From IMG/VR virus record IMGVR_UViG_2835547190_000003, positions 768 through 64,767 of that record: a DNA stretch of 64,000 nt; one strand, 5' to 3'. The notes beneath the pieces are model-generated. The model worked only from the letters and a program-made list of their open reading frames with translations, was not told the DNA's origin and searched no databases. The DNA comes from a virus. Taxonomy: Duplodnaviria; Caudoviricetes. This document shows positions 7,731-60,506 of the stretch, in pieces (position 1 is the first letter of the stretch; each line of letters begins with the position of its first letter). The position numbers and the translations under genes were made by a program.

Positions 7731-7778
7731 ATTCTCTCCTCGTGTTTTGTGGTGTGGTGGTTGGTTAGGGGGTGGGAG

Positions 7779-8432
7779 TTAGGCGGTGGCCTGCATCGAC
7801 TTGTTATCATTGGCGGCCAGCCAAGCCTGTGCACGCTTCACCCTGCCGCCGGCAAGGCTGTATATATACGATGAGGGGATGCCCATATCACGAGCGACCC
7901 GCGACGGGCGCTCTCCGTTTTGCAGCCGTCGCATCACGGTATCTATCAATATATCGGAATATTTTGCACAATGATGGGCCTCACCTGTCGGTACGTGAAG
8001 TGTATATGAAGTCCCGTGCGCGATTGCGTCCGCAACATTTTCCTTCCGGGTGCCCCAATACATATGGGATGGATTTACGCACCCTAGATGCCCATTGCCA
8101 CAAGAGTGGCAGCATTCGTGCTTTGGGGTTGGCTTATCGCCCTTGGCTGCTATTAAAACAGCAACGTCCGCATTAATTGATTTTCCAGCGACCCTAACCC
8201 TGCCTCGACCTTCGGCGTTTTTTCCAAATGGCCATGCAATGCACTCGTCAACATCTTGAAGCAGAGCAGTATCGCGCACAAATTTATTCGCCGCACCATA
8301 ATCGATACCGCCGCCGAGCGGGTCGCCATGACGCAACAGCCTAGCATAATGCTTCCTGCAATAACCTTGCCCGCCTGTTCGGCCTACAGGGTTTTCACAA
8401 CCGTCAACCGCGCAAACGCTGATTTTCCTCAC
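7779..8432 (-). CDS. HNH (His-Cys box-like) endonuclease
   Basis: N-terminal CxxxGC..YCRKHY; HSCGNGHLGCVNPSH..GTRKEN; GTG start after GGAGG. Confidence 0.85.
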   Translation of the reverse strand: MRKISVCAVDGCENPVGRTGGQGYCRKHYARLLRHGDPLGGGIDYGAANKFVRDTALLQDVDECIAWPFGKNAEGRGRVRVAGKSINADVAVLIAAKGDKPTPKHECCHSCGNGHLGCVNPSHMYWGTRKENVADAIAHGTSYTLHVPTGEAHHCAKYSDILIDTVMRRLQNGERPSRVARDMGIPSSYIYSLAGGRVKRAQAWLAANDNKSMQATA

Positions 8433-9675
8433 GCCGCCTCCTCTGCGTTTCGTTATCATTCGTGGCCATAGGCCCATCATCAATCATCGCCACCCGCACC
8501 CGAGAAATCTCGCCGTAGCGCGCATGGTATGTGATCGTCTGCAAGGACCGCCCGGACAGGAAGCCCGCGCCGTAATGCCACGCGTCTTGCGGAATCGGTG
8601 CTTGGTGCGATTCGCAGATTACGCCGCCGCCTTCCGTCGCGAACTTCGACTGGTGATGGATATGAAAGCCATGGCAATAGCGGAACTTCGTCGCGCCCCA
8701 CATCTCGGCCCGCCGGTGCGCCATAATTTGTGGCATGTTCTGAAGTTTGACGGTGTGTCCGTGCGTGGCTGCTAGCATCACATCGCCGTGCTGATGATAG
8801 AAGAACAGCGACGGATCGACGTCAACTGTGACGCGCGACTCATTGCGATACCAGGCAAGCAGGAAATAAGCCACGGCAACGGCGGTGTGCTCGTCATGAT
8901 TGCCCGGCAGAACGCGCACAATCACATGCTGGTTGCGCCGTAGCGCCGCGTCGATGGTGCGGACTTTCAGGCGGCATGCAACCTCGATGCCTTTTGGGTA
9001 GCGCCCATCGACGTCCAGCACATTGCCCGACCGTGCCGTGCGGTTCTCGCTGTTGTCGGAATGAGTCAAGTCACCGCCACCAAGTACAATAGCGACGCCC
9101 GCCGAAGGGCTGCGCGCTATAGCGTCATCAATGCCTCTCCCGATAACCCGCTCTGCGGTTTCTAGATCCCAATTCGTGCCAGTCTCACGCCCCCACGTCA
9201 GCAAATTGATGTGCCAATCATTGCAGGGTATCAACGTCAGAAGGTCCATATCGGAAACGGCTGGCGCAGGCTGCAGCACGGCGAAGGGTTCATAATCGGC
9301 AAAGGCGGCCTTTAGTGTTTCTGCAATGTCGGCGGCAGTAGGCTCAACAGCCGTCTTCTGCCATTGCTGGATGACCCGACCTTCCGCGTCAATCAGCGCC
9401 GACACACCGCGCACGGCGTGGCCTTCCGGCACCTGCCACTTGTCGCCAGCCTCTTTCGTCTGCCGCACATACGTGCCGTTCGGCGTTTCGGTCAGGCTTT
9501 TGATAGAGTATCCGGGCAGGGTCTTTGACGGACCCAACAGCCCAATTTCTGCCGCGCGCTTTACGCTTTCGCCCATGGCGGACTTGCCGATACCAAGCGC
9601 AGCGGCAGCCTTAACCAGCGTACCGTGCTCGCGATAAGCCTCGGCGCGGCGCATGAGTTCTTCGTGTGGAAGCAT
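8404..9675 (-). CDS. Calcineurin-like metallophosphoesterase with N-terminal HTH
   Basis: DWH, GGD, PGNHD, HGH, FHIHH motifs. Confidence 0.85.
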   Translation of the reverse strand: MLPHEELMRRAEAYREHGTLVKAAAALGIGKSAMGESVKRAAEIGLLGPSKTLPGYSIKSLTETPNGTYVRQTKEAGDKWQVPEGHAVRGVSALIDAEGRVIQQWQKTAVEPTAADIAETLKAAFADYEPFAVLQPAPAVSDMDLLTLIPCNDWHINLLTWGRETGTNWDLETAERVIGRGIDDAIARSPSAGVAIVLGGGDLTHSDNSENRTARSGNVLDVDGRYPKGIEVACRLKVRTIDAALRRNQHVIVRVLPGNHDEHTAVAVAYFLLAWYRNESRVTVDVDPSLFFYHQHGDVMLAATHGHTVKLQNMPQIMAHRRAEMWGATKFRYCHGFHIHHQSKFATEGGGVICESHQAPIPQDAWHYGAGFLSGRSLQTITYHARYGEISRVRVAMIDDGPMATNDNETQRRRREENQRLRG

Positions 9676-9882
9676 TTAGTGTCCTCTTGCCGCAAGCATG
9701 GCGTCGGCGAGTGCGTAGCATTTACTGGCTAGATCGGGGCCATGGTCCGTAACCGGCCAACCGGCCAGCGCCTGCCCTGCGAAATAGTCGCGGAGGGACA
9801 TGCCGTGAACAGGCGCGCTCGGTTGCGCGCAGTCATGAATGTGATTAACGTCTGGGAACATGACGGCGTTGCGCGTGCTCAT
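9676..9882 (-). CDS. Hypothetical phage protein
   Basis: GMSLRDYFAGQAL..YALADAMLAAR family motif. Confidence 0.8.
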   Translation of the reverse strand: MSTRNAVMFPDVNHIHDCAQPSAPVHGMSLRDYFAGQALAGWPVTDHGPDLASKCYALADAMLAARGH

Positions 9883-10193
9883 GCCTCACCCCGCGCTTTT
9901 GCTAGGGCTTTATCAGCCATGCTCAGCCAGCAATCGAAACCTGCTTGCTCTTCGAGTCCGGCAAGGCGGCAATCAACTGATAGGCGATACAACGCCTCAT
10001 ACAGATCAGGCGCGGCAGCAAAAAGTTGAGCGTAGTCGGGCCGGCACCGGCACCACTCGCTCGTCCCCATAACTTCATTGCCCTTGCAGTCGGCAATCAC
10101 CGCAGCATCAACAGCGTCAACGCCAGCCTGCGTTACATGCCACGGTGTGTTCTGGAATGCAGGCGCACCCGCGCCCTGTCTGTCATTGGACAT
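9879..10193 (-). CDS. Hypothetical phage protein
   Basis: TPW..LFAAAPDLYEAL..ALAKARGE motif; CACGAGGAG leader. Confidence 0.8.
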   Translation of the reverse strand: MSNDRQGAGAPAFQNTPWHVTQAGVDAVDAAVIADCKGNEVMGTSEWCRCRPDYAQLFAAAPDLYEALYRLSVDCRLAGLEEQAGFDCWLSMADKALAKARGEA

Positions 10194-10364
10194 ACAGTCT
10201 CCTCGTGTTTGGTTGGTGGCCGACTCGCGGCGCGGATTGGTGGTCCGTACAAAGGATGGAAAGAGACTCAGAGCCGACTGTCAAGTGCTGGTTGTTAATC
10301 AACTGAAATTATCGATTGATTTAATCATGCCCTTTTATGATACTCGGCTATCAAATGGGCGGGC

Positions 10365-33993: not shown

Positions 33994-33997
33994 GAAC

Positions 33998-36219: not shown

Positions 36220-36399
36220 ATCTGCTCCTCGTGTTATGGTCGTGGCTGGTAAGGCCGGTGGCGCGGAGTTAACGGGCGCCGATCTGCGCGGTATGCAGAA
36301 ACAGTGAAAATGACTCCAACCGATTTAGCAAGTGTTTTTTTGGCGGATGGCGTAACCCGGCCTTTCAGGTTGTATTTTTAAAATCTCTTTTTTCCTAAA

Positions 36400-40712: not shown

Positions 40713-40771
40713 TTGCGTTATCCTCGTGTGTGGTAGTGGTGTGGCTGTTTAAATGTCGGTACGTGATACAA

Positions 40772-43058: not shown

Positions 43059-43238
43059 CATAATCTCCTCGTGTTTCGTGGTGGTAACCTGCCAGTTGGT
43101 GGCTGGCGGGGTGTTGTTACTGAAATGGCCAGTAGGGCGGCTGGCTACTGATGCATTGACCGCAGAAATAGTCGGCCAAATAAAGCGGGCCGTAAGTAAG
43201 CGCCACGGCGAGCAGTATATGGCGCGGGCGAATTTTCG

Positions 43239-43415: not shown

Positions 43416-43435
43416 TAGCCATGCGCATCCACCCA

Positions 43436-43969: not shown

Positions 43970-44023
43970 GATTGCTCCTCGTGTTTTTTGGTGTAAAGCG
44001 GCTGGTAAGGCCGCTGCTAGTGG

Positions 44024-45199: not shown

Positions 45200-45285
45200 A
45201 TGATTCTCCTCGTGTTTTGGATGGTTGGTTGGGCAGTCCGGTATGCACTCTAACACGCCTCGCAGCCGTTACTGTTAATGGGGTG

Positions 45286-47070: not shown

Positions 47071-47085
47071 TCGGGGGGGCTTTCT

Positions 47086-47682
47086 TTGAAAAGTGACGCG
47101 GACGGTGGTTTTTCTAGCGTAATTCTGGCGCTGGCAGTTGTGCTTTACATTACGATTGTCTGCTTAACTTTTGCTGGCTTGGTCGCGACTAAACCTACGG
47201 TTGGCATCGCCTTTTTGGAATTTGTAAAAGAGTACGGAGCCATTGTTGCCGGTATCCCGGTTTTGATCGCAGTTTTAGTAGCTAAACAGCAGTTGGATGC
47301 TAGTAATAGGCAGCATGTGGCGACATTAAAGAGGTCGTTTCAGAAAGAACTTGATGCACTGAATACTGCTAAATCATCCCTAATCGTCGTTTTAAATTTA
47401 TCAGCACATGAGATTATTAAGAAATGCACTGCTGGCAATATTTTACCCTCTATACTTTCAGGTAATGAAGCGGAGTTAATCATAGACAACCTCCCCAAAC
47501 GCATTGCCGAGGCAATTTTATGGTGCAACGAAGAAATTAATCGCAGCATCGTACGATACGGCCTTGGCCAACTTGATCTTTCCCAATTTGATGAGAGATT
47601 ACAATTTATACAAATACGTGCAAAACTTGCGCTAGGAGATGTTCAGGCAATCTACGATGAAAGGGCGAAATACTGGTCCTAA
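47086..47682 (+). CDS. AT-rich membrane-anchored protein (moron)
   Basis: Two N-terminal TM helices plus helical domain; opposite strand; low GC. Confidence 0.7.
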   Translation: MKSDADGGFSSVILALAVVLYITIVCLTFAGLVATKPTVGIAFLEFVKEYGAIVAGIPVLIAVLVAKQQLDASNRQHVATLKRSFQKELDALNTAKSSLIVVLNLSAHEIIKKCTAGNILPSILSGNEAELIIDNLPKRIAEAILWCNEEINRSIVRYGLGQLDLSQFDERLQFIQIRAKLALGDVQAIYDERAKYWS

Positions 47683-48666: not shown

Positions 48667-48875
48667 TAGTGCTGCTCCACGCCATGGCCGAGGTGCTCTA
48701 GAATGCGTTGATACACGTCACCTTCTTGGTATGACACACCGTTGTAACAGTGGGCGCTTGGCTGCAAATCTAGCACAAGTAGCCCATCGATATAGACGAG
48801 CGCGCCTTCGGCCCATGACGAGCCGCATGTTTCGCAATCATAAGTGTCGTCAAGCCATTCGATACTGATTTTCAC
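48666..48875 (-). CDS. Hypothetical protein
   Basis: DCETCG; coupled to neighbours. Confidence 0.7.
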   Translation of the reverse strand: MKISIEWLDDTYDCETCGSSWAEGALVYIDGLLVLDLQPSAHCYNGVSYQEGDVYQRILEHLGHGVEQH

Positions 48876-49063
48876 TTAACCACCTCCAACTCGCGCAATA
48901 GACATTTGACGAACGGCATCAAGCTGGACGCCTCGTGGATTTCTACTTCGTATTCGCCATCTTCTGCAAACGCGACTTCGGTCACACCTTCGCGGCGCAG
49001 CGCATATTCAATGGCGTTGAAGATCGCGGTTTCGGTAAGGGTGGGCGGCCCACGCCTTTTCAT
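48872..49063 (-). CDS. Hypothetical protein
   Basis: Coupled to neighbours. Confidence 0.6.
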   Translation of the reverse strand: MKRRGPPTLTETAIFNAIEYALRREGVTEVAFAEDGEYEVEIHEASSLMPFVKCLLRELEVVK

Positions 49064-49075
49064 CGGCGTCCATCG

Positions 49076-50125
49076 TCATGTCCTCATCGGCATCAAGACC
49101 GCAGTCCACTCGCCCTCGCCCTTGATAACGGCAGGCGAGCCTGCATCACCAAAAGCAAAGCGCACGCTCGGTTCATCCAACGCGCCAAGCATGTCGTTGA
49201 CATACCGGCTGTTAAAGCCGATCTCCAAAGGCTCGCCTTCGAACGTGGCCTCAACTTCGTCGCTGGCCTTGTCTGCCAGTGACAGGCGCAGCACATCGCC
49301 GACGGCGAATTTCACGGCACGCGACCTGTCATCAGCAACCGCGGCGACACGCTCCACAGATTTCATGAGGGCTTGCCGATCGACGGTAAGTACATTGCCG
49401 TTGCCGGTGGGAATCACGCGCACATAGTCGGGAAATGTGCCGTCGATCAGCTTGCTCGTGATAACCGTCGAGCCAGACGTGACGCGCACCTTGTTCTGGG
49501 ACAGTTCGACCGTAACCGCACCTTTCGGCAGTAATCCTACGAGCTTGCGCGGCAGAATGACGCCGCCCTCCAACGAGGAAGGCAGGGTACCGGCAGGGCC
49601 GATGTTGCGCATAAGCCGGTGGCCGTCCGTTGCGACAGCAACCAAGCGGCCTTCGACAGCATGCAGATATACGCCAGCCAGATAATAACGGGTCTCTTCG
49701 GTCGAGATGCAGTGCACACACGGCGCTACAAGCGTAGCCAGATCAAGCTCCAGCGTCGTGTCAAACTTACCGGCGCTGAATGACGGAAAGTCTTCTGCAG
49801 GCAAGACGTCGAGCTTATACCGGCTCTTGCCAGACTTGACGATAAGCTGATGACCTTCTGCGGTTAGCGATATATCGCCGGTCGCACGCTTGGCTATGTC
49901 AGCAAGCATTTTGCCGGGAACAGTTACGCTACCCGGCTGGCAGTCCAGCACCGGCAGGCTGGTCGCTATCTCCACGTCCAGATCGGTGCCGGTCAGGCGC
50001 AACTGGCCGTCCTCGACTGCCAAGAGTGCGTTGGCGAGAATAGGGATTGTGTTTCTTGTTTCAATCGCCTTGGTCACAATTGCCAAGGCGTGCGCAAGGT
50101 CTGCGCGGTCGAGCGTGACTCGCAT
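49076..50125 (-). CDS. dnaN: DNA polymerase III beta clamp (phage-encoded)
   Basis: TIPILAN, TDL, ETRYYL, VATDGHRL, LIDGTFPDY, GFNSRY, VLMPMR. Confidence 0.95.
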   Translation of the reverse strand: MRVTLDRADLAHALAIVTKAIETRNTIPILANALLAVEDGQLRLTGTDLDVEIATSLPVLDCQPGSVTVPGKMLADIAKRATGDISLTAEGHQLIVKSGKSRYKLDVLPAEDFPSFSAGKFDTTLELDLATLVAPCVHCISTEETRYYLAGVYLHAVEGRLVAVATDGHRLMRNIGPAGTLPSSLEGGVILPRKLVGLLPKGAVTVELSQNKVRVTSGSTVITSKLIDGTFPDYVRVIPTGNGNVLTVDRQALMKSVERVAAVADDRSRAVKFAVGDVLRLSLADKASDEVEATFEGEPLEIGFNSRYVNDMLGALDEPSVRFAFGDAGSPAVIKGEGEWTAVLMPMRT

Positions 50126-50183
50126 GAAAATCTCCTCGTGTTCGGCAGTGGTAGGCGCGGTGGTGAGCCGCGCCTGTTGGTGG

Positions 50184-50393
50184 TTAGTGACTATACCAAG
50201 TGCGCATAGGCGGTAGGTCGCCGAACCACGGCTTGCCGATTGGCGGGAATGTCTGGGGCGGCTGGCTAATCTTTTCGGCGATTACGCGGTCCAGCTTACT
50301 TGCAATGGCCGCCCACTGCTCTGCATCAGGTGCGCCATCGATAAACGAAGTGCTGAAACCTTCCAGCCATGCCTTAAACTCGGATAAAGTCAT
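50184..50393 (-). CDS. Hypothetical phage protein
   Basis: EFKAWLEGF..PxxEQW motif. Confidence 0.75.
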   Translation of the reverse strand: MTLSEFKAWLEGFSTSFIDGAPDAEQWAAIASKLDRVIAEKISQPPQTFPPIGKPWFGDLPPMRTWYSH

Positions 50394-51226
50394 GCTGCTT
50401 CCTTTCTGCCCTGTAGGACTTCATCGGCGAGAGGCCAGCCGTCTTCGTCAAGCTCTGTCGGTACGAACTCAACGCCATTCAGGTTTGCGATATGCCGCAA
50501 CAAATCTTCCGCATTGCCCGGCATATTGTCATTCGCCGGCTGCACCCATGGCTCGCTTTCTGCGTCCTCGACGGTCAGCGCTTCGATGGCGGCATCAAGC
50601 GTAAACGGCTTGTCCTCATTGCCGAGAACAATCTTGTCGCCGTAAGCGCCGCCAATCTGGTCCTTCAAGTCTTCCCACGATTCTATACGAACCCCGCGAA
50701 CAGCGAGCGCGATTTTCATCATGTCGCCTTTGCCGATCGTATATCCACGCTGCTGGTACTTCAGGACGCGCGTTGCGGACGCCAGTGGGTAACGCGTGCC
50801 GGGATTGAACTTCAAGAAACGCTGGCTATTGTGCTTCAAAAAGTCGGGGTGGAAGATGAACCCGGAATCGGGGTGCCCGTCCCTCTGGTGTACATCCAAA
50901 TCCAGCGCGCCCATGCAGACGGTGTAATCAAAGGCCGCAAAGATGGCATCGGCGGTCGGGAAATAATCAAAGTGCATCAACTGTGCGATGGTGTCGCCGC
51001 TGACGAACGTCACGGCACGCTTGCTGGCAGCAACGCACCACAGGCCGTCTTCGTATGCCTGATAGACGCCGGTCTCGAATGCGCGGCGCGATTTGAAATA
51101 CACGTCCACGTCGTTGATTTTCGCGTTGGTGAACGCGCTCGTGACAGCGCCGCCAGCAATGAAAGCGCCGTCAAAGCGCAGCGGACTTGCCGCCATAATC
51201 AGTTTTCGTTCGGCTTCGTAAGCCAT
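50390..51226 (-). CDS. Class II (CCA/poly(A) polymerase-like) nucleotidyltransferase
   Basis: FIAGGAV..NDVDVYF (GG-DxD) and FDYTVC (RDFT-like). Confidence 0.75.
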   Translation of the reverse strand: MAYEAERKLIMAASPLRFDGAFIAGGAVTSAFTNAKINDVDVYFKSRRAFETGVYQAYEDGLWCVAASKRAVTFVSGDTIAQLMHFDYFPTADAIFAAFDYTVCMGALDLDVHQRDGHPDSGFIFHPDFLKHNSQRFLKFNPGTRYPLASATRVLKYQQRGYTIGKGDMMKIALAVRGVRIESWEDLKDQIGGAYGDKIVLGNEDKPFTLDAAIEALTVEDAESEPWVQPANDNMPGNAEDLLRHIANLNGVEFVPTELDEDGWPLADEVLQGRKEAA

Positions 51227-51300
51227 GCGTATCTCCTCGTGTTCGGTTCGGTGCGATGGTTGCTACCGGCGCTTTCGCGCCAGTAGCAGGTTGGTTTAGA

Positions 51301-51849
51301 TTAACCCCAAGGGCGCTTCTTGCCCTCCGCTGCCGCCGCTGGCTGGTTGCTGTTAGCAGCCGCAGGCCGGTTATCATTGGCCGGGCGCGGCGCGGTGGGC
51401 TGGGTGGCGTCGATCTCCGCAGGAGGCACATTGCCTTCATCTGGATAGTAATAGCGCTTGATCTCCGCACGTGCCGGATATTGCCCGTCCTTTGAAGGGC
51501 GGCCAAGTGCAACGCGAGCCGTGAAGGACTTGAAAAGCAGGTCTTCGGTGTCGTCCACCGCCGACACGCCGATCGCGCGGCAGAGCGACGCAAGTTGGCG
51601 CTGCCCTATCTCCTGCGCTTGCGGGTTTTTGTTTTCGATATTGTAGTTCGTGAAAAGCTTGCGGCCTTCCTGCTCTTGCGGCTCAAGCACCTTCATCGTG
51701 GTCTTGAGAATTGTTCCGCTGCCGGTCGATGTCGCAGCAACGTCCGCCGCTTCAACTTCCATGACATACGTGCCGTTGGGCAACTCCGCATAATCGGATT
51801 GGGTCGTATCGTGATCTGTCGCATTAAATCTTGTGGCTAGTTTCGCCAT
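51301..51849 (-). CDS. DUF669 family (SSB-like) protein
   Basis: LPxGTY, GRKLF..N..N..AQEIG..L..LC.AIG; next to Sak4. Confidence 0.8.
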   Translation of the reverse strand: MAKLATRFNATDHDTTQSDYAELPNGTYVMEVEAADVAATSTGSGTILKTTMKVLEPQEQEGRKLFTNYNIENKNPQAQEIGQRQLASLCRAIGVSAVDDTEDLLFKSFTARVALGRPSKDGQYPARAEIKRYYYPDEGNVPPAEIDATQPTAPRPANDNRPAAANSNQPAAAAEGKKRPWG

Positions 51850-51876
51850 AGGTATTCCTCGTGTTTGTGGTGGTGG

Positions 51877-52047
51877 TTAGAACGGTGAAGGAAAGAAGCC
51901 GCCTGCAATGAGCAGCCATGTTGTGAGGCCGACGGCAATGAGTGACGACCAGATGCTGTAATTTGGTCGTGGCTTTCCGTGCATCGCTGCTGACGCGCCA
52001 AAACCAGTGGCCATCAGAACCAGCATGACTATCTGTGGCCACCCCAT
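51877..52047 (-). CDS. 56-aa two-TM membrane protein
   Basis: Hand-translated MGWPQIV..HGKPR..GGFF; TGATG coupling. Confidence 0.7.
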   Translation of the reverse strand: MGWPQIVMLVLMATGFGASAAMHGKPRPNYSIWSSLIAVGLTTWLLIAGGFFPSPF

Positions 52048-52835
52048 CACGCCGCCTCCTTCTGCGCCGCGTTGTCATTACTAGGCAACCAATACTTGGA
52101 AAGATCAGCGAAGCCCTGCCCTTTGCGATAGAGAACTGAATCTGGATGCGGATAGCGGGTCTTGGCCATAAATCCCGCTCCTTCAGACAAATGAATCTGA
52201 CGCTCCTTGCCGCCCTCAGCTCGCGTAACCTTTGTTTGGCGCGCGACCTCCTTTTCTTTGATGCTGATGCGGTAATTCATGAATGCAACCACATCGGACT
52301 TTTCGCGCACCAAGGCGTTTGCTCGCTTGTGGAGCTTAGGCTGGTATCGTGAATACGGATCGGACGTAGGGCTGTCGAAACGAACGATTTCAGGGTGCGC
52401 CAGCATCACAACATAAATGCCTGCACGTGCGAGCGCAGACACCGCCGCCATGAGTTCATTCCATTCAGTGTCGGCCTCGACGTAGCCTTTCCCGTACCCT
52501 GCGTCCTCGACACTGTTAATGCCAAGACGCGCTGCCGTCGCCCGCCAGACAAGCGGCTCCAGCCCGTCAAGGCTATCGATAATGACGGTCTGGCGGTCGT
52601 GGTCTTCGGTCAGCAGTTCGCCAATGATGTTCAACAGATCATCAAAGCTTTCGATGGTGCCCGGCGTTGCAAGTTCAATGTCAGACGGCGGGCGCTCGCC
52701 TTCCGTGGCCAGATAGATCGGGTTCGGAAATTCGGCGGCAAGGCTGGTTTTGCCGATGCCGTCCACGCCATAAAGCAGCATGACTGGTGGGTCGTGTCTC
52801 TTTGTGGATTTCAAGCTGGATAGGCTGATCGCCAT
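52047..52835 (-). CDS. Sak4-like AAA_24 ATPase (ssDNA annealing)
   Basis: YGVDGIGKTSLA, IIDSLD, GYGKGY, AKTRY. Confidence 0.88.
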   Translation of the reverse strand: MAISLSSLKSTKRHDPPVMLLYGVDGIGKTSLAAEFPNPIYLATEGERPPSDIELATPGTIESFDDLLNIIGELLTEDHDRQTVIIDSLDGLEPLVWRATAARLGINSVEDAGYGKGYVEADTEWNELMAAVSALARAGIYVVMLAHPEIVRFDSPTSDPYSRYQPKLHKRANALVREKSDVVAFMNYRISIKEKEVARQTKVTRAEGGKERQIHLSEGAGFMAKTRYPHPDSVLYRKGQGFADLSKYWLPSNDNAAQKEAA

Positions 52836-52935
52836 CGTGCTCTCCTTTTTTAGATGATAGCCAGTATGAAGATGGTGACGAGGAACAGCACGGTTCCTGC
52901 CAGCGCGTACCCGCTGGGGTCTGGGCCGGCTGTCA

Positions 52936-53190
52936 TCACCCACCCCACAGATAAAGCAGCCCATAAAAGGGCAGAATGCCGTTCCAGAACACGACGCCCA
53001 TGGCGACGAAGGCGAGCACCAAGGCAAGGGCAGCGTGCGCCAGCGACCGGCCTACGCGCCCCCCGCCGGGGATGCGTCCGGGTTGGATTAGGATGCGGTC
53101 GTCCTCGACGCGGTATTTGCTCCATGGGCTGTTGCGGCGTGTGTTGCCGGGGCGGTCGTTGACGGCGTAGTCTTTGTAGGGGTTAATCAT
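52936..53190 (-). CDS. Small membrane protein
   Basis: C-terminal hydrophobic helix; coupled. Confidence 0.6.
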   Translation of the reverse strand: MINPYKDYAVNDRPGNTRRNSPWSKYRVEDDRILIQPGRIPGGGRVGRSLAHAALALVLAFVAMGVVFWNGILPFYGLLYLWGG

Positions 53191-53467
53191 GGCTCACCTC
53201 CAACTGATCCAGCTTGGCGCGGGCCTGCGGGATGCTGTAGCTGCGGCCGACATTGGTGGCCTTGGCCGAGATCGTGATAAACGCGATAATCGCGCCTACC
53301 CATTGCAACGCTACGCTCTGCAATAGGACACCAATACCTATGAGCGCAGCGAACAAGATAAATGTGCTTGCATCGCGCATCCACGACTTGAGCACCGTTT
53401 CGTGCACAATAATGACTTCGGGCTTCGACGTGGCTCTGCCGCCGCCCTCGTTGGGTTCTCTAAACAT
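53183..53467 (-). CDS. Two-TM membrane protein
   Basis: Hydrophobic hairpin; GAGGAGG RBS. Confidence 0.7.
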   Translation of the reverse strand: MFREPNEGGGRATSKPEVIIVHETVLKSWMRDASTFILFAALIGIGVLLQSVALQWVGAIIAFITISAKATNVGRSYSIPQARAKLDQLEVSHD

Positions 53468-53535
53468 AATTCCTCCTCGTTCCCCGCCGCGAATGCAGCG
53501 GGGCTGGTAGGGTTGGCTGTGGTTGCTGTTGCGGG

Positions 53536-54423
53536 TTAGGCGGCGACTAGCTTGCTAGTTGCGATGATGACGGGCTGGTTGCCTCCGGTGTCAACAAATG
53601 ACCATTTGTCGAACCGTGCCAGTTCATAGCCGTATCCCCGATGCGTCTTGACGAAGCGGACCTTAGTCACCGTAGGGGGCGTGGGGTCTACCGTATTCTC
53701 CAGCCACGATTTTGTTGCGTCTGCAACAACGCCCATGAGGTCGTCAAACGCTGACGAAACATTATCGTTATCGTTGCTGGCGGCTTCCTGTGAGGCAACC
53801 TGTGGCTCGTCGGCCCATTCGGCGATGAGGTCGGCGCTGGTTTCCATAGTGCTATTGGCTCGCCCATCGCACCACCAGTCCGCCCCGTTATGCGTCGCGC
53901 GGTCTGCTGTCGTACGCATCGGCCCTACCTTGCGCCCGTCGCGGGTGCGGTAGTATTTTCCTGATTGGATGCTGAGGACCGGCTCAATGCAGTCAGGCTT
54001 TGCACGTGTGTACTGGGGCTCCACAGACAACGTCTGATAGTTATATGGTGGGTCTATATTCAGCAGGTATTCGCCGTTGTTCATGAGCTTGCCGTCCCAC
54101 GATTCAATCGTAGCCAGTTTTCCAACCGCGCCTATGGTGGATTTGCCGTCCTTTACCAATCGCACCCGGTCGCCGACCTTGAAGCGCGGTTCGTCGGACA
54201 CGGCCCATTCACCGGTGTCCAAAGGATAGGCTTCACCTGCATCATCAGTAATGATCACGCAGTTCCCACATGCGCCAGAAACGACATATTCTTTACCCGC
54301 GACAACATCCATTTCAGTCACAAGGCTTTTGACCCTATCCCCGACCTTCACGCGTCTTGCGCCCTTGCCGTATTCATCAGCCTGCACATCGACCTGCGCA
54401 GCTTCCATTGTTCGCGTGACCAT
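53536..54423 (-). CDS. Mosaic phage protein with repeated KVGDRV (KOW/SH3-like) modules
   Basis: Two KVGDRV modules plus GKYYRTRDGRKVGP module. Confidence 0.75.
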   Translation of the reverse strand: MVTRTMEAAQVDVQADEYGKGARRVKVGDRVKSLVTEMDVVAGKEYVVSGACGNCVIITDDAGEAYPLDTGEWAVSDEPRFKVGDRVRLVKDGKSTIGAVGKLATIESWDGKLMNNGEYLLNIDPPYNYQTLSVEPQYTRAKPDCIEPVLSIQSGKYYRTRDGRKVGPMRTTADRATHNGADWWCDGRANSTMETSADLIAEWADEPQVASQEAASNDNDNVSSAFDDLMGVVADATKSWLENTVDPTPPTVTKVRFVKTHRGYGYELARFDKWSFVDTGGNQPVIIATSKLVAA

Positions 54424-54722
54424 TAGGCGGCTCCCCTCGTTTTTGTTTTCGCCGTCAGCTTCACCTTCTTTGTGAAATCGACCGGAATGATGTTGTCTTC
54501 TGGTTCGGCTTGGCTACCACCCCCGCCGTCTTCATCATCAAACGGCTCGACTTCAAACCGCGATACTTCGGCGGCAACCAGCCCTTGGCCGGGGACTAAA
54601 AATCGCACAGTCAGCATCCTGCCAGCGTCACGGTCGCCAATGATGACGCCAAGCCAGCCTGTCAGCCGGTGGCGTACAAATTCGCCGGGCAAGTCCCAGC
54701 AATCTCCACAATCGCAGGTCAT
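54423..54722 (-). CDS. Hypothetical protein
   Basis: Coupled; 99 aa. Confidence 0.7.
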   Translation of the reverse strand: MTCDCGDCWDLPGEFVRHRLTGWLGVIIGDRDAGRMLTVRFLVPGQGLVAAEVSRFEVEPFDDEDGGGGSQAEPEDNIIPVDFTKKVKLTAKTKTRGAA

Positions 54723-54922
54723 GCCGCACCTCTTTTCTGTCTGCTGTAGCTAACCGGCGAGCCGGACACATAGCGCCCGTCAACCAAGCGCGCTGTGCGC
54801 CGGGCGTCTTCTTTCTGCGCAGCGGTGCGATAAGGCTTGCGGTTTGTCATGTCCCGCGTGCCAGTTCGTGTGTACTGCGTTTGGTGCGCCGTTTCCGGTC
54901 GCGTGTATTTATGGGATTTCAT
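54719..54922 (-). CDS. Basic hypothetical protein
   Basis: GGAGG RBS; ATGA coupling. Confidence 0.65.
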   Translation of the reverse strand: MKSHKYTRPETAHQTQYTRTGTRDMTNRKPYRTAAQKEDARRTARLVDGRYVSGSPVSYSRQKRGAA

Positions 54923-54988
54923 AGTTCCTCCATGCTGGAGGTTAATCTTCGGCCCCGTTCCCTAGGCGGTCGGCCCTGCCTTAAAAGG

Positions 54989-55297
54989 CTAGTGGACGGT
55001 GGCTGTGCCTGCGCTAGCAGGGGCGCCGATAAAAGGCCCGTCCAGTAAGGTAATGCGCGGCATTGCGATATACATGTCGCGGCATAATGTTGAGCATCCA
55101 CCGTTATGCGTGGAGCGTTTAACAACCGTGCTTTCTGTCGGCGTTGGCGGCGGTAGTGCGGGCACTCTGTCTGCGAGCAGAGACCAAGCGTGGCCTCTGG
55201 TAATGCCCATCATTTCCGCGATCTTCCCGAATGACGCACCTTTTTTACGATGCGCGGCGGCTTTCGCCTGCAATTCCTGTCGTGGTGAATACTGCAT
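54989..55297 (-). CDS. HTH DNA-binding protein
   Basis: GASFGKIAEMMGITRGHAWSLL; CACGAGGAG leader. Confidence 0.75.
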   Translation of the reverse strand: MQYSPRQELQAKAAAHRKKGASFGKIAEMMGITRGHAWSLLADRVPALPPPTPTESTVVKRSTHNGGCSTLCRDMYIAMPRITLLDGPFIGAPASAGTATVH

Positions 55298-55559
55298 AAC
55301 TCCTCGTGTTTGGTTGGTGGTGGTTGACAAATGCCGCGACTGGCGGCATCTGTCTGGCTGGCTGGGGTGGTACCCGGCAAGGAACGGGAGGGTTGGAGTT
55401 TTACTCCTCGTGGCCCGAACTAGTACGGGCAGGCTGGCGAAGGGTGGTACCGGAGCATAACAGCCTGCTTTTTGTTTGGCGTGGCATCTGGCGCAGGGCG
55501 TTTCCTCGTGTTTGGTCACATGCCAGATCATGCGTTCTGCAGGTGAGGCAGAATGGGGG

Positions 55560-56408
55560 TTAGGCCGCTTTATACTGCGACCAGATAATCGCGGCGAATT
55601 CCTGCCGGTCTGTTTCATCCAGCGCGGCCCACGCATCCCAGAACACTTGACGCTTTCTGTCCTTATTGGACGCCGTCGCCTTGGCTCCGCCAGCGGCGAT
55701 AATTCCAAGCGCCTTATCGGCGGTTATTGGTTTGGTTTCGGGGGCTGGCCGCGCGCTAACCTTTTCGCCACGCTCCGCTCGACTGATAAGGCTTTCGCGC
55801 TCATCCGATGGCAGCTTAGCGAGCGCGTCCATCTCGACACCCTTATCGAGGCTGGTGCCAACAATGCGGTGAATGTCGGGGCCGAGCACCCTGCCTCTCG
55901 CCGCGGCCATCCTGATCGCGCGGTCGGTCTTGCCAGATGCCGAGGCTGTTTCTTGGACGAATGATGCCTTATCCGTGTGGAAAAATTTGCCAGACGGTGA
56001 TTGATTCCCACCGTGCTTTGTCTCCGGGTGGATCTCCTCATAAATAGCCTTACGCCGAGCAATGTGCGCCGCCTCTTCGGCTGGAGACAGTTCCGAACGG
56101 GCCAGATTCTCGTCGATTTCCATGAGCTCGGCATGAAGATCGTCAACGTCATGAACGACGCATTCTACATATTCTTCACCGTTCATTTTGAGTGCTGCCA
56201 AGCGGTGGCGGCCATAAATCAAAACCGCCACCCCGTCGCACAACTCTCCGTCATCCATGACGATTTCGTCACGGATGCAGACCGCCGGCGGGTTCATTAG
56301 TCCGACTTCGGCAATGCTCTTCGCAATCTCTGCAACTTTATCTCCATCAGCATTACGATGGCGATTGCCGATAAATATGTCGTCAATGAATAACCGCCGA
56401 CGCTCCAT
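55560..56408 (-). CDS. ParB N-terminal domain protein
   Basis: SIAEVGLMNP, LIYGRHRLAA, EIDENLARSEL. Confidence 0.88.
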   Translation of the reverse strand: MERRRLFIDDIFIGNRHRNADGDKVAEIAKSIAEVGLMNPPAVCIRDEIVMDDGELCDGVAVLIYGRHRLAALKMNGEEYVECVVHDVDDLHAELMEIDENLARSELSPAEEAAHIARRKAIYEEIHPETKHGGNQSPSGKFFHTDKASFVQETASASGKTDRAIRMAAARGRVLGPDIHRIVGTSLDKGVEMDALAKLPSDERESLISRAERGEKVSARPAPETKPITADKALGIIAAGGAKATASNKDRKRQVFWDAWAALDETDRQEFAAIIWSQYKAA

Positions 56409-56410
56409 AG

Positions 56411-57511
56411 TCAGATCACCTCAGGCAAAGATGCGGGGGAAGTAGCTACAGCTAGGGACCGCCCTGCGCGCCAGATCAGGAAGTGGTGCACGATCCCACG
56501 TGTCCACTGCTGGCGTGTCCACTTGACTGTCTTTTCGCGCAAAGCCTCGCGAAGCGTATAAATTGGGTTGCGACGCTTAAGCATCTCACCAGTACGGAAT
56601 GCGGTGAAGAAATGACGAATGTCGTCTTCGTTCGCACCCAAGGAAAGAAGGTGGAGCGCGGCAACACCAGGCGCAGCAGCCCCAAGCCCCTTCTGTGGAT
56701 TTCCGATAAGGGAATTGGCAAGAACGATGTGCTCTTGGTTCTCGAAATAATAGTCTTGCGCTTCTGCAGGTGTGGCCGCGCGACCATTGTACATCTCGAA
56801 CGCAAGGTTTGAGATAGCGGACATATGCACGGCGTTAGGAATGCTTGCGATATTCAACCGATCAACGCCGGTGCGCTTACGACCGATATTAACGGTGCGC
56901 ATCGATTCCTTGGTGACGCCGTACGAGACGACCGATTCAATTGGCTGGCCAGTCAGCAAGACGCCGAATGTGCGGTGCTGACCATCGTTCACCGTTCCGT
57001 CCTGGCATACAACGATTGACTCGCCGTTCAAATCAAATCGATGGGTCGCAATATCCCGCATAATAGCGGCGAGGTTCGCGGCATTAACTCGGCGGTTGCC
57101 GATGTTATGGACGAGTAGGATCTGCGCGCGTTCTGGCGAAATGATATGCACATTGGCGCGAGCGTCGCCATCGCGAACAAGGCGCTGATGCCATTCCGAT
57201 GCCTTGGTGAACTCCGGCGTCCCACCGTAAATATAAAAGCCTTCATCCTTACCCGCGTTGATAAGGCGAGCGGCGATGCGCGCTGCATCTTCAAACCGGC
57301 CTTCACGCACAAGACGAAACACTTTTTCATGTTCGGTTTCTTCTGTAGCGGCAGCGCGAACTACCACCTTCGGCGCATCTTCCAGAATGCGCGGCTTAGG
57401 AACCGATGTTGGTTTATTGAATAGCGCCTCCGCGCGAGCGCGCTCTGGTGTGTATCTCTTTCGACGGTGCTCAACGGGGACCGTGCGGCTATTGGCCTGT
57501 ACAATCTGCAT
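56411..57511 (-). CDS. ParB/Srx-like domain protein
   Basis: NRRV, NGESI, DGQHR. Confidence 0.7.
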   Translation of the reverse strand: MQIVQANSRTVPVEHRRKRYTPERARAEALFNKPTSVPKPRILEDAPKVVVRAAATEETEHEKVFRLVREGRFEDAARIAARLINAGKDEGFYIYGGTPEFTKASEWHQRLVRDGDARANVHIISPERAQILLVHNIGNRRVNAANLAAIMRDIATHRFDLNGESIVVCQDGTVNDGQHRTFGVLLTGQPIESVVSYGVTKESMRTVNIGRKRTGVDRLNIASIPNAVHMSAISNLAFEMYNGRAATPAEAQDYYFENQEHIVLANSLIGNPQKGLGAAAPGVAALHLLSLGANEDDIRHFFTAFRTGEMLKRRNPIYTLREALREKTVKWTRQQWTRGIVHHFLIWRAGRSLAVATSPASLPEVI

Positions 57512-57675
57512 GTCATTCTCCTCTATAGGTTGAAAATTCTCGTATTACGTGCTTATGTGAAGGGACTGGCGGCTTTCTTCGCGTGCTCGCTGTGTGTCGT
57601 GTTGGCGACCATTGGCCCTCTATAAGACGGCCTTTTCACCAAAACCGACCACCACGACACGAGGAGGCAAAGCAC

Positions 57676-57798
57676 ATGAAAAAGATTATCGAACGTCTGG
57701 TTCACGTACGCGCCTATGTTCGCTTACGGTTCGGGAAGATTGAGTATGTCCGGGAGCACACACGCTCTTGGCCCAATCAATTATCCTTCGAGTTCTAA
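57676..57798 (+). CDS. 40-aa basic peptide ending QLSFEF
   Basis: CACGAGGAGG RBS; VHVRAYVRLRFGKIEYVREHTRS. Confidence 0.65.
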   Translation: MKKIIERLVHVRAYVRLRFGKIEYVREHTRSWPNQLSFEF

Positions 57799-57878
57799 TA
57801 ATGTAGCCGCCAGCACCCACTAATAAGCATGTCAAACGCGCCAGCCGCGTTTTCAGCGGCCAGCGTCCCTTGTTGATT

Positions 57879-57932
57879 CTACGGTGGGTGATTGTCGTTG
57901 TCGGCGAAATAATGTCTGTCAGAATTTGTCAT
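57879..57932 (-). CDS. 17-aa mini-ORF MTNSDRHYFADNDNHPP
   Basis: CACGAGGAG leader 7 nt upstream of ATG. Confidence 0.4.
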   Translation of the reverse strand: MTNSDRHYFADNDNHPP

Positions 57933-57993
57933 TGTGTTTCTCCTCGTGTTTTCTAGCTGGTCAGTCTTGGGGCTAATTAAATCTTCAGGCTAG

Positions 57994-58029
57994 CTATCTG
58001 TCCGGCTTTGGTAACTCCGGCTTCTGCAT
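57994..58029 (-). CDS. 11-aa mini-ORF MQKPELPKPDR
   Basis: Strong AAAAGGAGG RBS; first ORF after the leftward promoter. Confidence 0.4.
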   Translation of the reverse strand: MQKPELPKPDR

Positions 58030-58080: not shown

Positions 58081-58109
58081 ACAATAGTAGCACTACTACT
58101 TTATGTCAA
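58081..58109 (-). promoter_or_regulatory. Leftward early promoter/operator
   Basis: TTGACA-N17-TATTGT; near-palindrome AGTAGCACTACT in the spacer. Confidence 0.75.
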
Positions 58110-58158: not shown

Positions 58159-58842
58159 ATGACTAGGTTTGGGAAAAGGCTCACAGCCGCTCGTTTGGAA
58201 AAAGGTTATACGTCGCAGGCAAAAGCCGCTGCGCTCGTAGGGCTTGCTGCCGCCACATTTGGAAAGATCGAGCGCGGAGAAACCGTCCGCCCGAACAATT
58301 GGCGGCAGATCGCGCTCGCATTTGATATTCCTATCGATGAGGCGGACGAACTGATGAACCTGGACGCTCTGGACGCAGGCAAGGCATCTAAGCTGACAGC
58401 AGATATTCAGCCGGCTCAGCCCATTGTGCCGCGCCGGGCATTTAAAGGCGTGTCACCGGGGAAGACACCTGTTCTTGGGTATGCCGCGGCGGGCGATCCC
58501 GATAGGCTCGTGATGCTTGCCGATATAGTAGACCAGATTGATACACCATATCAGTTAATTGGCGTTGAAGGCGCATATGCGCTCTACGTCTATGGCACAT
58601 CAATGATCCCGCGCTATTACCCCGGCGAACTAGTCTTCGTTCACCCGAAGAAGCCTCTAACCGCAAATTGTTTTTGCGTTGTTCAGGTTGGTGCTGGCGC
58701 GCCAGAAGGCGCCTTTATAAAGCAGTTCAAGTCATGGAATGACATACTGACCGTTGCCCAATTCAATCCGGCTGAAGATATAACCTTTACAAGCGACGAG
58801 ATATTTGACGTACACCGGATCGTTGGGGCGGGCGACGATTAA
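58159..58842 (+). CDS. cI: CI-like repressor (XRE HTH plus S24 peptidase)
   Basis: HTH ..KIERGE; AAG cleavage site; GTSMIPRY Ser; FIKQ Lys. Confidence 0.92.
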   Translation: MTRFGKRLTAARLEKGYTSQAKAAALVGLAAATFGKIERGETVRPNNWRQIALAFDIPIDEADELMNLDALDAGKASKLTADIQPAQPIVPRRAFKGVSPGKTPVLGYAAAGDPDRLVMLADIVDQIDTPYQLIGVEGAYALYVYGTSMIPRYYPGELVFVHPKKPLTANCFCVVQVGAGAPEGAFIKQFKSWNDILTVAQFNPAEDITFTSDEIFDVHRIVGAGDD

Positions 58843-59275: not shown

Positions 59276-59319
59276 GCTACTTTTTATTGTTGACTATCGC
59301 TACTTTCTTCGCTACTACT
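59276..59319 (+). promoter_or_regulatory. Rightward early promoter/operator
   Basis: TTGAC-N17-CTACTA; three GCTACT repeats also present at the leftward promoter. Confidence 0.65.
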
Positions 59320-59389
59320 CTTCTCAACAGCACGAAGACAGCCACGCGGCCCGATCTGCTGACAGACCAAAACACGAGGAGACTTCAAC

Positions 59390-59683
59390 ATGAGCGACAC
59401 ACCAAAGAGAAGAAGACCGTTCACCCGCAAAAACGAAATTATCGGCGGCGGATTCTTTGTATTTCGCCGCGGCAAGAAGACTGGCCGCATAGGCCGCACC
59501 AAGTTCCCATACGAACACGGCTCGTTTGCGTCTGCGATGGCAGAAGCGACGCGCCTAGCAGCCCTGTGCCCCGGCGAGACGTTCGAAGTTTTCCAGACGA
59601 GCGGCGCTGTAGCGCGAGGCGAGCCGGTAGATGCGCCTGCACCGGCTGAATTGGCCGAGATCTCCGTAAAGGAGGCAGCGTGA
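59390..59683 (+). CDS. Hypothetical protein
   Basis: CACGAGGAG leader; PYEH..AMAEATRLA..PGETF. Confidence 0.8.
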   Translation: MSDTPKRRRPFTRKNEIIGGGFFVFRRGKKTGRIGRTKFPYEHGSFASAMAEATRLAALCPGETFEVFQTSGAVARGEPVDAPAPAELAEISVKEAA

Positions 59684-60021
59684 TGAAGCGGAACCCCACA
59701 GAAGAACTTGCGAACATCCCGCTGTCGCGCGGACAAAAGAACATAGTCGATGCATTGGCAGCGATCTACCCGCGCCGCATGCATATCTTCGATCTCGTCA
59801 ACCACGTCTATGCGCTAGACCCGAATGGCGGTCCAGATAACGCCATGGGATCAGTGCGCACACAAATTTGCAACATCCGGAAGCGCCTGCCCGGCTTTGG
59901 CTGGACGATCCCAAAGACGTTCGACGTGCAAGGTCAGCATGGATGGTATCGACTGGAACCAGTCGCAAACGACAACACCTCGGCGAGCGAACAACAGGCA
60001 AGTGTAGGGAGGGCAGCATGA
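59680..60021 (+). CDS. Winged-helix DNA-binding protein
   Basis: LVNHVY..SVRTQICNIRKRL..I..GWYRL (OmpR C-terminal-like). Confidence 0.75.
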   Translation: MMKRNPTEELANIPLSRGQKNIVDALAAIYPRRMHIFDLVNHVYALDPNGGPDNAMGSVRTQICNIRKRLPGFGWTIPKTFDVQGQHGWYRLEPVANDNTSASEQQASVGRAA

Positions 60022-60284
60022 TGGCCCGCTGCAATCACAGCAACCGCTACACCCACGACCTTATCCCAGAGCGCGAATTTGACACAGAAGTCCTCGTTGA
60101 CGACGTACGCAGCACAGCGCGTGCTGGCAGTGTAGAGCCAATGCGCCGCCCTGATTACCGCGCCAAGAAACACGCAAAGCCCCAACCGTGGATAAGATAC
60201 GCACTGCGCGAAGCCGTTGAAATGACAGTCGTTGTCGCTTTCTGCGTGGCTGTGTGCGCCGTAGCTGTGGGGGTGGCGGCGTGA
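60018..60284 (+). CDS. Small membrane protein
   Basis: C-terminal TM; coupled. Confidence 0.65.
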   Translation: MMARCNHSNRYTHDLIPEREFDTEVLVDDVRSTARAGSVEPMRRPDYRAKKHAKPQPWIRYALREAVEMTVVVAFCVAVCAVAVGVAA

Positions 60285-60506
60285 TCAGGGTTGCCATAGC
60301 CACCGACGCGCTGCGGACGATTTTTGCACGTAGCAACAACGACCCGCTTGGCACCAGCAAAGTCAACGATATGCGCCGAATTGCGGAAGAAGCGCTGGCA
60401 AGGCTGGGCGAGCACGGAAGATAGCGACGGGGCGGCAAAGCCCCCCCCATACCCCTCTTTTTTGCGCGCTCACCAAGCGCACCACCCCGACCATGAGGAG
60501 ATTTTT

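Follow-up and report, generated by a model that had tools for sequence, protein, structure and literature searches.

A candidate translation-initiation cassette preceding the non-structural genes of a phage 16-3-like prophage

Results

The prophage and its start-associated motif

The stretch of DNA analysed here (hereafter the window) comprises 64,000 nt on contig C12 of a 3.84 Mb genome of the Brucella/Ochrobactrum group with 56.9% G+C. It is a prophage of a temperate siphovirus resembling phage 16-3, in which a short motif, CACGAGGA, recurs ahead of gene starts behind an A/C-rich leader and often a hairpin, an arrangement that we call a cassette. The terminase, portal and capsid genes (28-33 kb), the tape measure and tail fibre genes (16-24 kb) and the endolysin gene (12.8-13.7 kb) all lie on the minus strand. 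The early and replication region at 38-57.5 kb is also on the minus strand and encodes a ParB-like protein, Sak4, a DUF669 single-strand-binding protein, the DnaN clamp, a Cas4-like exonuclease, a helicase, RtcB, a Gp157/Gam-like protein, two methyltransferases and a primase-polymerase. A CI-like repressor gene occupies 58159-58842 on the plus strand. DnaN is 46-50% identical to its counterparts in the Rhizobium/Sinorhizobium phages 16-3 and RHph_TM3_3_14B (NC_011103 and MN988496), which have a similar replication module, and the nearest relatives are prophages of the Brucella/Ochrobactrum group with DnaN identities of 73-87%. A megablast search of the phage collection with positions 40000-58000 gave no matches. 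According to the accessible part of one report, 16-3-like prophages are common in Ochrobactrum (PMC5492332).

We found 16 copies of CACGAGGA on the two strands of the window, 14 on the minus and two on the plus strand (Table 1), which confirms every copy listed in a preliminary description of this DNA. That description expected about two copies by chance; in 100 dinucleotide-preserving shuffles of the window the mean was 1.67 and the largest number 5, and none reached 16. The whole genome holds 87 copies, and the density outside the window is 1.20 per 64 kb. The longer forms are more concentrated still, with 13 of the 20 genomic copies of CACGAGGAG and 13 of the 16 copies of AACACGAGGA falling in the window. 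All 16 copies of CACGAGGA have the orientation of the local genes, and 14 are followed by a start codon (13 ATG, 1 TTG) at a distance of 3-10 nt, slightly wider than the 5-9 nt given earlier. The earlier assignment of these 14 to non-structural genes holds: the genes served have early functions or act in replication, recombination and nucleotide metabolism, and no copy lies in the 26 kb of the head, tail and lysis block (10208-36225). The copies at 7.7 and 10.2 kb precede genes of nucleotide-metabolism type, the counterparts of the non-structural right arm of 16-3. The two copies without a gene start, at 55405 and 55503, both lie within one non-coding region of 260 nt; among the loci read, the 55503 copy occurs only in the window, in L003/L133 and in L077. 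Read on its own strand, the consensus is an A/C-rich leader followed by AAACACGAGGAG, 2-9 nt of any sequence and ATG.

As a host set we used 715 sites outside the prophage at which GAGGA is followed by a start codon and a coding open reading frame (ORF) of at least 60 codons. CAC precedes GAGGA at only one of them, compared with 12 of 25 prophage starts. The motif is thus far from equally frequent upstream of host genes, and its earlier description as phage-specific stands.

Table 1. Motif copies, hairpins and associated features of the window
Feature	Position	Strand	Associated gene or detail
Motif copy	7737..7744	-	ATG 7730; gene 7290-7730, DUF7768 / nucleoside 2-deoxyribosyltransferase-like, 146 aa
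Motif copy	10200..10207	-	ATG 10193; gene 9879-10193, 104 aa, phrog_1273, function unknown
Motif copy	36226..36233	-	ATG 36219; gene 35686-36219, 177 aa, phrog_824
Weak hairpin GGC-CTTACCA-GCC	36244-36256	-	3-bp stem, upstream of the 36226 copy
Motif copy (CACGAGGAT)	40721..40728	-	TTG 40712; gene 38475-40712, primase-polymerase/helicase, 745 aa
Full cassette	43066..43110	-	Hairpin 43091-43107 (loop CCACCAA), A/C leader, motif 43066-43073; MT-A70 methyltransferase gene 42465-43061
Cassette	43976..44015	-	Hairpin 43997-44015 (loop CTTACCA), leader, motif 43976-43983; Gp157/Gam-like gene 43436-43969
Motif copy	45207..45214	-	ATG 45199; RtcB RNA ligase gene 44024-45199, 391 aa
Cassette	50133..50175	-	Hairpin 50153-50175 (loop CTCACCA), leader, motif 50133-50140; phage DnaN sliding-clamp gene 49076-50125
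Cassette	51234..51288	-	12-bp hairpin 51261-51288 (GAAA loop), leader, motif 51234-51241; gene 50390-51226, 278 aa, phrog_18122
Motif copy (CACGAGGAA)	51856..51863	-	ATG 51849; DUF669 single-strand DNA-binding protein gene 51301-51849
Structured leader RNA, 197 nt	55293..55489	-	Motifs 55301-55308 and 55405-55412; covarying outer helix 55429-55468; hairpin 55326-55354
Motif, true ribosome-binding site of the structured leader	55301-55308	-	ATG 55297; HTH protein gene 54989-55297
Non-initiating 'decoy' motif copy	55405-55412	-	Inside the structured leader
Third intergenic motif copy (CACGAGGAA)	55503..55510	-	15 nt ahead of an unconserved ATG; not start-associated
Motif copy	57658..57665	+	ATG 57676; 40-codon ORF 57676-57798
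Motif and mini-ORF	57879..57948	-	Motif 57941-57948; conserved 17-codon mini-ORF 57879-57932; first cassette after the early promoter
Sigma-70-like promoter, best match	58081..58109	-	TTGACA-17-TATTGT, 10/12; faces the early operon bearing most cassettes
Motif copy	59373..59380	+	ATG 59390; gene 59390-59683, 97 aa

Pairing with 16S rRNA and composition of the leader

The gene for 16S rRNA ends in this genome with the 3' tail GGATCACCTCCTTTCT, with which GAGGAG, located 2-9 nt before the start codon, can form six base pairs including one G-U. We are almost certain that the core serves as a ribosome-binding site, but not that the ribosome alone reads it. An extended pairing of CAC with the 16S tail was rejected on inspection of the tail, so that the earlier remark that CACG lies outside anti-Shine-Dalgarno pairing is correct for CAC. 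The puzzle attached to it largely dissolves, because the A/C-rich leader has CAC at its 3' end, which places ACA directly 5' of the Shine-Dalgarno sequence in all 14 start-associated copies; all 14 likewise have an ACA in the interval -12..+3 relative to the motif.

The leader itself is distinctive. The 22 nt upstream of the motif have an A+C fraction of 0.79 and a G fraction of 0.12, compared with 0.50 and 0.28 at the 715 host starts, and the prophage holds eight A/C-only runs of at least 14 nt where 1.41 would be expected at host density. G-poor spans (G at most 10%) reach at most 63 nt, with a median length of 23.5 nt, and three sites have none. Since an A/C leader cannot pair with itself, a lower cost of opening is predicted: the region -18..+6 has a predicted opening cost of 6.1 kcal/mol at the 14 motif starts and 10.1 kcal/mol at 47 other window starts (Mann-Whitney p = 3.6e-5). 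Sequence runs X1-X3 cover the window evenly, as identical contigs at a depth of about 1-7, a pattern that says nothing about transcript ends, and the RNA run X15 has no reads on it.

Hairpins upstream of the cassettes

A hairpin lies 10-19 nt upstream of the motif in 6 of the 14 window cassettes, and four of the six loops read CTCACCA, CTTACCA, CCACCAA and CTTACCA when the weak stem at 36244-36256 is counted. The ACCA-rich leaders and ACCA-loop hairpins of the preliminary description are thereby borne out for the G-poor A/C leaders and for the solid hairpins at 50153-50175, 43997-44015 and 43091-43107, and not for 36244-36256, the stem of which has only 3 bp. Within the window alone, ACCA-loop hairpins show no enrichment (6/441, against 393/30977 in the host). 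Across eight loci with 87 cassettes, 40 cassettes have a GC-rich hairpin within 30 nt upstream, and ACCA occurs in the loop of 22 of these 40 hairpins (CCACCAA eight times), compared with 86 of 8609 other hairpins in the same loci, a contrast inflated by orthologous sites that are not independent. In 11 related loci the hairpin at 50153-50175 keeps its stem while the loop varies (CTACCAA, TTGCCAG, CCACCAA, TCACCAG and others). Between sites the stems are unrelated, and several contain G-U pairs, which would be A-C mismatches on the opposite strand; the folded species is therefore the coding-strand RNA. The cassette hairpins are RNA hairpins of the coding strand that are defined by their loops.

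A structured leader RNA before the HTH gene

A gap of 260 nt separates the ParB-like gene from a small helix-turn-helix (HTH) gene and contains both intergenic copies without a gene start; about 200 nt of this gap are conserved in related prophages. With 12 sequences as its basis, a covariance model recovered 30 instances, of which 26 are distinct. In the leader alignment, 90.2% of cells pair, compared with 41-49% when the partners are slid, and changes on both sides occur in 29 pairs, compared with 9-17 when slid; the alignment was fitted to the model, which favours structure. Compensatory changes are present in 8 of 8 pairs of helix 1, and none of 500 shuffles reached the observed covariation. 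Rfam gave no match at the gathering score in the window except two transfer RNAs (tRNAs), and none in 55200-55650 at E values up to 1. Within the genus, 19 of 44 genomes contain the leader, and among 300 sampled genomes of the family it was found in no other genus; the model detects nothing in 16-3 and RHph_TM3_3_14B. In three loci it precedes a different protein of 150 aa.

An invariant UUUCCUU, within GTTCCTTG (55378-55385), is predicted to pair with the real Shine-Dalgarno GAGGAG. This pairing survives one-sided changes (UG to UA five times, CG to UG five times), with 98.7% of cells paired, which suggests that the phage treats this GAGGAG as a ribosome-binding site worth masking. The decoy copy, ACACGAGGAG, sits atop the covarying helix and is kept in nearly all of the 26 distinct leaders, and two loops show G[CU]ACCACC. 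From the covariance model we propose a new, well-supported structured RNA predicted to mask a ribosome-binding site, with the look of a translational switch that carries a decoy of such a site. Two other explanations of the region were rejected: an antisense small RNA from 55.3-55.6 kb, because the G-U pairs and the one-sided changes fit the sense strand, and a conserved upstream ORF, because the reading frames differ among relatives. The AlphaFold prediction for the HTH protein, a three-helix HTH with a beta-hairpin, is of low confidence (mean pLDDT 65, pTM 0.41).

The cassette in related phages

Five related prophages (L001-L005) contain 9-12 copies per 20 kb, and a scan of viral contigs yielded further relatives with multiple copies (L057, L058, L071, L073, L077, L079 and L093). 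Orthologous genes (DnaN, single-strand-binding protein, Sak4 and the HTH gene) share a fixed core, with drift in leaders and spacers. A lineage with 69% G+C (L090) has ACCACA-CACGAGGAG-CAAGCC-ATG. The copies in L006, L007, L060, L111 and L117, from actinobacterial or other high-GC sources, lie inside coding sequence as His-Glu-Glu codons and were rejected as chance matches.

CACGAGGAG is absent from phage 16-3 and RHph_TM3_3_14B, the cassettes of which have the layout of an ACCA-loop hairpin, a ACCACCAC leader, (A/C)AGAGGAGAC, 4-6 nt of any sequence and ATG. The most over-represented words of these two genomes are AGAGGAGA, with 14 copies in 16-3 and 12 in RHph_TM3_3_14B (0.77 and 0.62 expected), and ACCACCAC, with 10 and 15 copies, respectively. 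The more distant phages AmM-1 and RR1-A, which also have DnaN, are without the cassette architecture. This distribution assigns the cassette to the 16-3-like lineage, where its core varies from one sub-lineage to another. In seven related loci the Sak4 gene has CACGAGGAGACCT-ATG, which follows immediately on the stop codon of a gene for a small membrane protein; the window (52835) uses AAAAGGAGAG instead, a sign that an orthologous gene may lose its cassette or have it replaced. In 16-3 and RHph_TM3_3_14B, a palindromic ACAAATTTGT is also present 11-12 times per genome, often within TTGACAAATTTGTAAAAC just upstream of the cassettes. It is probably a promoter or operator specific to that lineage and is not among the enriched words of the prophage in the window.

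We also compared the early region of the window with L001-L005 by blastn. Among the 75 segments obtained, 17 start inside 10 cassettes, where 1.95 would be expected by length, and three start within 75 nt upstream of 20 other gene starts. The cassette at 43056-43119 forms an island of 52-65 nt with 92-98% identity in L001-L003, with unrelated flanks and different genes behind it. These observations indicate that cassettes mark module boundaries.

Discussion

A cis-acting cassette for translation initiation

We consider it somewhat probable, judging from the sequence, that a lineage-specific cassette for translation initiation, acting in cis and with CACGAGGAG as its core, serves the non-structural genes of this 16-3-like prophage. 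In such a cassette, the 'AAACAC' before GAGGAG would be the end of a G-poor, A/C-only leader that is unable to fold and could offer the 30S subunit enhancer and standby contacts of ACA or CA type. Upstream, the GC-rich hairpin would shield the ribosome-binding site from upstream coding RNA and may also stabilise the upstream cistron. The outcome would be efficient, context-independent initiation on every gene of the long early operons that lies behind an intergenic gap. A short shared cassette that opens each exchangeable gene block would also mark mosaic boundaries and may help create them. The available parts of the relevant studies describe both elements elsewhere: ACA motifs just upstream of the Shine-Dalgarno sequence raise initiation up to 100-fold in Salmonella (PMC3879156), and CA-repeat single-stranded tails of 16-18 nt act in ribosome standby (PMC5934652).

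Several observations fit this cis-acting cassette poorly. CAC directly abuts GAGGA in 57 of the 102 sites of the window and L001-L005 at which GAGGA is followed by a start, and an enhancer should tolerate a looser register; many of the other 45 seem gene-internal by inspection, although not formally classified, and several apparently real exceptions are one base off CAC (CAT, TAC, AAC). The C at position -1 loses one base pair with 16S rRNA, and 16-3 keeps A there. The non-initiating decoy is conserved as ACACGAGGAG in nearly all of the 26 leaders. The loops (CCACCAA, CTACCAA, CTCACCA) are conserved while the stems differ, which is the signature of a partner that reads loops and not that of a mere insulator. 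The gap in predicted opening energy is partly owed to composition alone and relies on our own start-codon calls. Finally, the enhancer literature is enterobacterial and does not concern Alphaproteobacteria.

Some of these points are what a post-transcriptional regulon would produce, in which a trans-acting factor reads ACAC-GAGGAG, the ACCA loops or both and co-regulates the early genes. We regard this alternative as possible although rather unlikely. It is the explanation most often put forward for the start-associated sequences of mycobacteriophages and is reminiscent of T4 RegA/RegB. Such a factor could be an endoribonuclease, a small RNA or some protein encoded by phage or host, and the leader of the HTH gene would serve as a sensor or autoregulatory operator. 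In a form that we propose equally tentatively, the factor would read the 7-nt ACCA-type loops together with the ACAC-GAGGAG core of all early mRNAs and set the timing or level of translation of the replication genes and the 197-nt leader, with its decoy, UUUCCUU and two ACCACC loops, would be the sensing switch. The regulon would account for the fixed register, the lineage-specific core (CACGAGGAG here and AGAGGAGAC in 16-3-like phages), the recurrence of the loops on unrelated stems, a decoy copy kept without a start codon within a covarying helix, and the restriction of the motif to one functional class of genes. Against it stands the lack of a candidate binder, since Pfam and PHROGs searches of the early-region proteins returned no RNA-binding or RNase family; the RNA-binding protein suggested in the preliminary description was thus not found there. 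The only nucleic-acid chaperone among the 25 families listed of the 50 matched (82 ORFs) is a cold-shock domain outside the early region, and no RegB-family endoribonuclease is among the same 25. Outside gene starts, no anti-motif copy that might give rise to an antisense RNA exists in the genome, and the leader, with its G-U pairs, folds on the sense strand. A G/T-rich conserved island at 52943-52994, the one inspected in a small-RNA search that was not systematic, was rejected as a G/U-rich RNA because it codes for two small membrane proteins.

Two proteins had been named as possible binders, and neither proposal gained support. The cold-shock gene (5906-6112, plus strand) adjoins the prophage genes on their left, within a stretch (1-6000) that has 50-51% G+C where the genome mean is 57%. 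The second candidate, a protein of 295 aa encoded at 53536-54423 on the minus strand, has SH3/KOW-like repeats (VKVGDRV...) and a structural similarity to Spt5 KOW domains below the threshold of the search tool (TM 0.23-0.34); we treat it as a lead only. It has 611 homologues, many in Brucella, Ochrobactrum and Rhizobium prophages. Five of ten homologues tested show a marginal match to the L7/L12 C-terminal domain (23-29 bits over about 28 residues, with a curated cut-off of 25.9), and the protein of the window has none. Owing to this match, some sources label the homologues 'ribosomal protein L7/L12'.

Recombination, which the preliminary description had offered as an alternative under the idea of gene shuffling, appears improbable as the primary function. 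Under this explanation, the 10-60 nt shared at the heads of gene blocks would provide homology for module swaps with co-infecting or resident phages, and the link to translation would be secondary. The excess of blastn segments that begin in cassettes over those at other gene starts, the island at 43056-43119 and the structured leader before a different 150-aa protein in three loci are all consistent with such a linker, and the association with module boundaries stands. However, only about 10-12 nt are conserved, which is short for homologous recombination, and leaders and spacers differ within one genome. Translation and not recombination calls for the strict spacing before start codons and for the strand bias, and genes with the motif come first after intergenic gaps, where block boundaries are expected anyway. 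Boundary marking is best seen here as following from cassette position, perhaps as a by-product.

Signals for Rho loading or antitermination (rut- or nut-like), which would impose temporal polarity on the early operon, are very improbable and were not borne out as the earlier suggestion had it. The leaders are indeed C-rich and G-poor, hairpins are placed between A/C-rich stretches, and the conserved Pro-Pro-stop mini-ORF at the head of the operon recalls the tnaC-type control of Rho. However, rut sites are roughly 60-80 nt of C-rich, G-poor, unstructured RNA, and the G-poor spans reported above fall short of that usual size. Strong ribosome-binding sites adjoin the leaders and would block Rho, and each genome has at least 10 sites and not one or two per operon. 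The loops are mostly of 7 nt and unlike the pentaloops of boxB, and no N- or Q-like protein was recognised among the early-region proteins. Least credible of all is a role for the DNA itself, with the motif serving a phage factor as promoter element or being a site of methyltransferase or restriction type: although the prophage encodes two DNA methyltransferases and CACGAG is an asymmetric hexamer of the kind that such enzymes read, all 16 copies point with the genes and 14 have a start codon at a distance of 3-10 nt, a site of this type would also occur inside genes and on both strands, and sigma-70-like matches number 10 against 12.8 expected with none accompanying the cassettes, which leaves a promoter at each cassette unsupported.

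Comparison with known systems

[quoted passage not shown] As described in the available portions of these two papers, they strongly prefer ATG, as do the cassettes here (13 of 14 starts); they occur in 11-19 copies of one orientation, comparable to the 16 copies co-oriented with genes in the window; and, like the motif here, they are confined to the non-structural half and virtually absent from the host. The same portions describe conserved positions that cannot pair with 16S rRNA, as with CAC in the window; an inverted repeat just upstream of about half of the SAS copies, where hairpins are often found at the cassettes; and attachment to different gene families in different phages, which also holds for the cassettes. 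Pope et al. suspected a binding factor for SAS on arguments similar to the fixed register and the conserved loops and non-initiating copy considered above (PMC3203893), and in the part available of the later paper the function was still untested as of 2025 (PMC12699233). There are also differences. The SAS consensus GGGATAGGAGCCC has no match in the window with up to two mismatches, the host here is an alphaproteobacterium and not an actinobacterium, and the extra conserved bases continue an A/C-only leader. ESAS are, in the portions available, 17-bp imperfect inverted repeats with conserved arms that were judged to be DNA-binding sites, whereas the arms of the cassette hairpins vary, the loops are conserved and G-U pairs mark them as RNA hairpins. 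In function and layout the cassettes are a system of start-associated sequences, but their sequence, host and hairpin type place them outside the mycobacteriophage family.

The leaders of the GcvB targets in Salmonella, so far as the accessible text of Yang et al. 2014 describes them, also have ACA in a C/A-rich context just 5' of the Shine-Dalgarno sequence, with several ACA per leader (PMC3879156). Those enhancers belong to enterobacterial host genes and are flexible in position, whereas the cassettes have a fixed register and are a phage lineage trait; a G/U-rich silencing RNA of the GcvB type was not found here in the search that, as stated, was not systematic. Standby sites, in the accessible part of Sterk et al. 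2018, consist of an unstructured CA-rich stretch beside a hairpin with a published optimum of 16-18 nt (PMC5934652), compared with 12-19 nt from hairpin to motif, plus AAACAC, in the cassettes. The same text presents the standby model as built for structured ribosome-binding sites, whereas most of those in the window are predicted to be open and only that of the HTH-gene leader is sequestered. The layout in 16-3 and RHph_TM3_3_14B is the same as here, with (A/C)AGAGGAGAC as the core there and AAACACGAGGAG in the window.

Early operons of other phages offer further parallels. T4 RegA acts at a site at the ribosome-binding site that is common to many early and replication mRNAs, and RegB cuts GGAG. 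Lambda nut sites are loop-specific boxB hairpins in early operons, with a pentaloop, boxA and an N-type protein, present once or twice per operon. No homologue of RegA, RegB or N was recognised here (for RegB, among the matches listed), the loops are mostly of 7 nt, the window alone has 5-6 hairpins, and there are many sites per operon; boxA was not searched for. We found no description of the cassette in print in the literature on phage 16-3 and, among the papers listed, on the 9-mer, a search that did not extend to the 16-3 genome paper and its supplements.

The same start-associated logic in an unrelated alphaproteobacterial phage lineage shows it to be a recurrent phage strategy and not a mycobacterial oddity. 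Phage 16-3 in S. meliloti offers a tractable model for separating a cis enhancer from a trans-regulated regulon, and a regulon, if true, would be the first tractable Gram-negative counterpart of the mycobacteriophage SAS/ESAS. As a cis-acting element, the cassette would be a natural compact design of a context-insulating ribosome-binding site made of a hairpin, a G-free CA leader and GAGGAG.

Other observations in and around the prophage

The mini-ORF at the first cassette of the early operon has 15-17 codons, and all six versions read end in Pro-Pro-stop (MTNSDRHYFADNDNHPP* in the window). This candidate for a ribosome-stalling leader peptide lies some 150 nt downstream of the best promoter match. 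A 600-nt gap (47071-47682) separates the genes of the Cas4-like exonuclease and the helicase at a place where 16-3 has two sigma-factor genes; it holds only a plus-strand ORF of 198 codons without any Pfam match. A low-G+C island at 36400-38400 (0.487) contains a lipocalin gene (37855-38397) and a DUF892 gene (36641-37150), neither of which has the motif; they look like cargo genes. Genes for tRNA-Met (CAT) and tRNA-Pro (TGG) lie at 33917-34074 on the minus strand between the early region and the packaging genes, and the same prophage carries the RtcB RNA ligase gene. Outside the window, at about 294,404-294,460 on the minus strand of contig C1, a lone hairpin with a CTCACCA loop is followed by AACACGAGGAGCAAGCC without a start codon. 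It is possibly the remnant of a second cassette-bearing element. The viral contig with 69% G+C (L090) uses an extended core like that on C1, as CACGAGGAGCAAGCC-ATG, four times.

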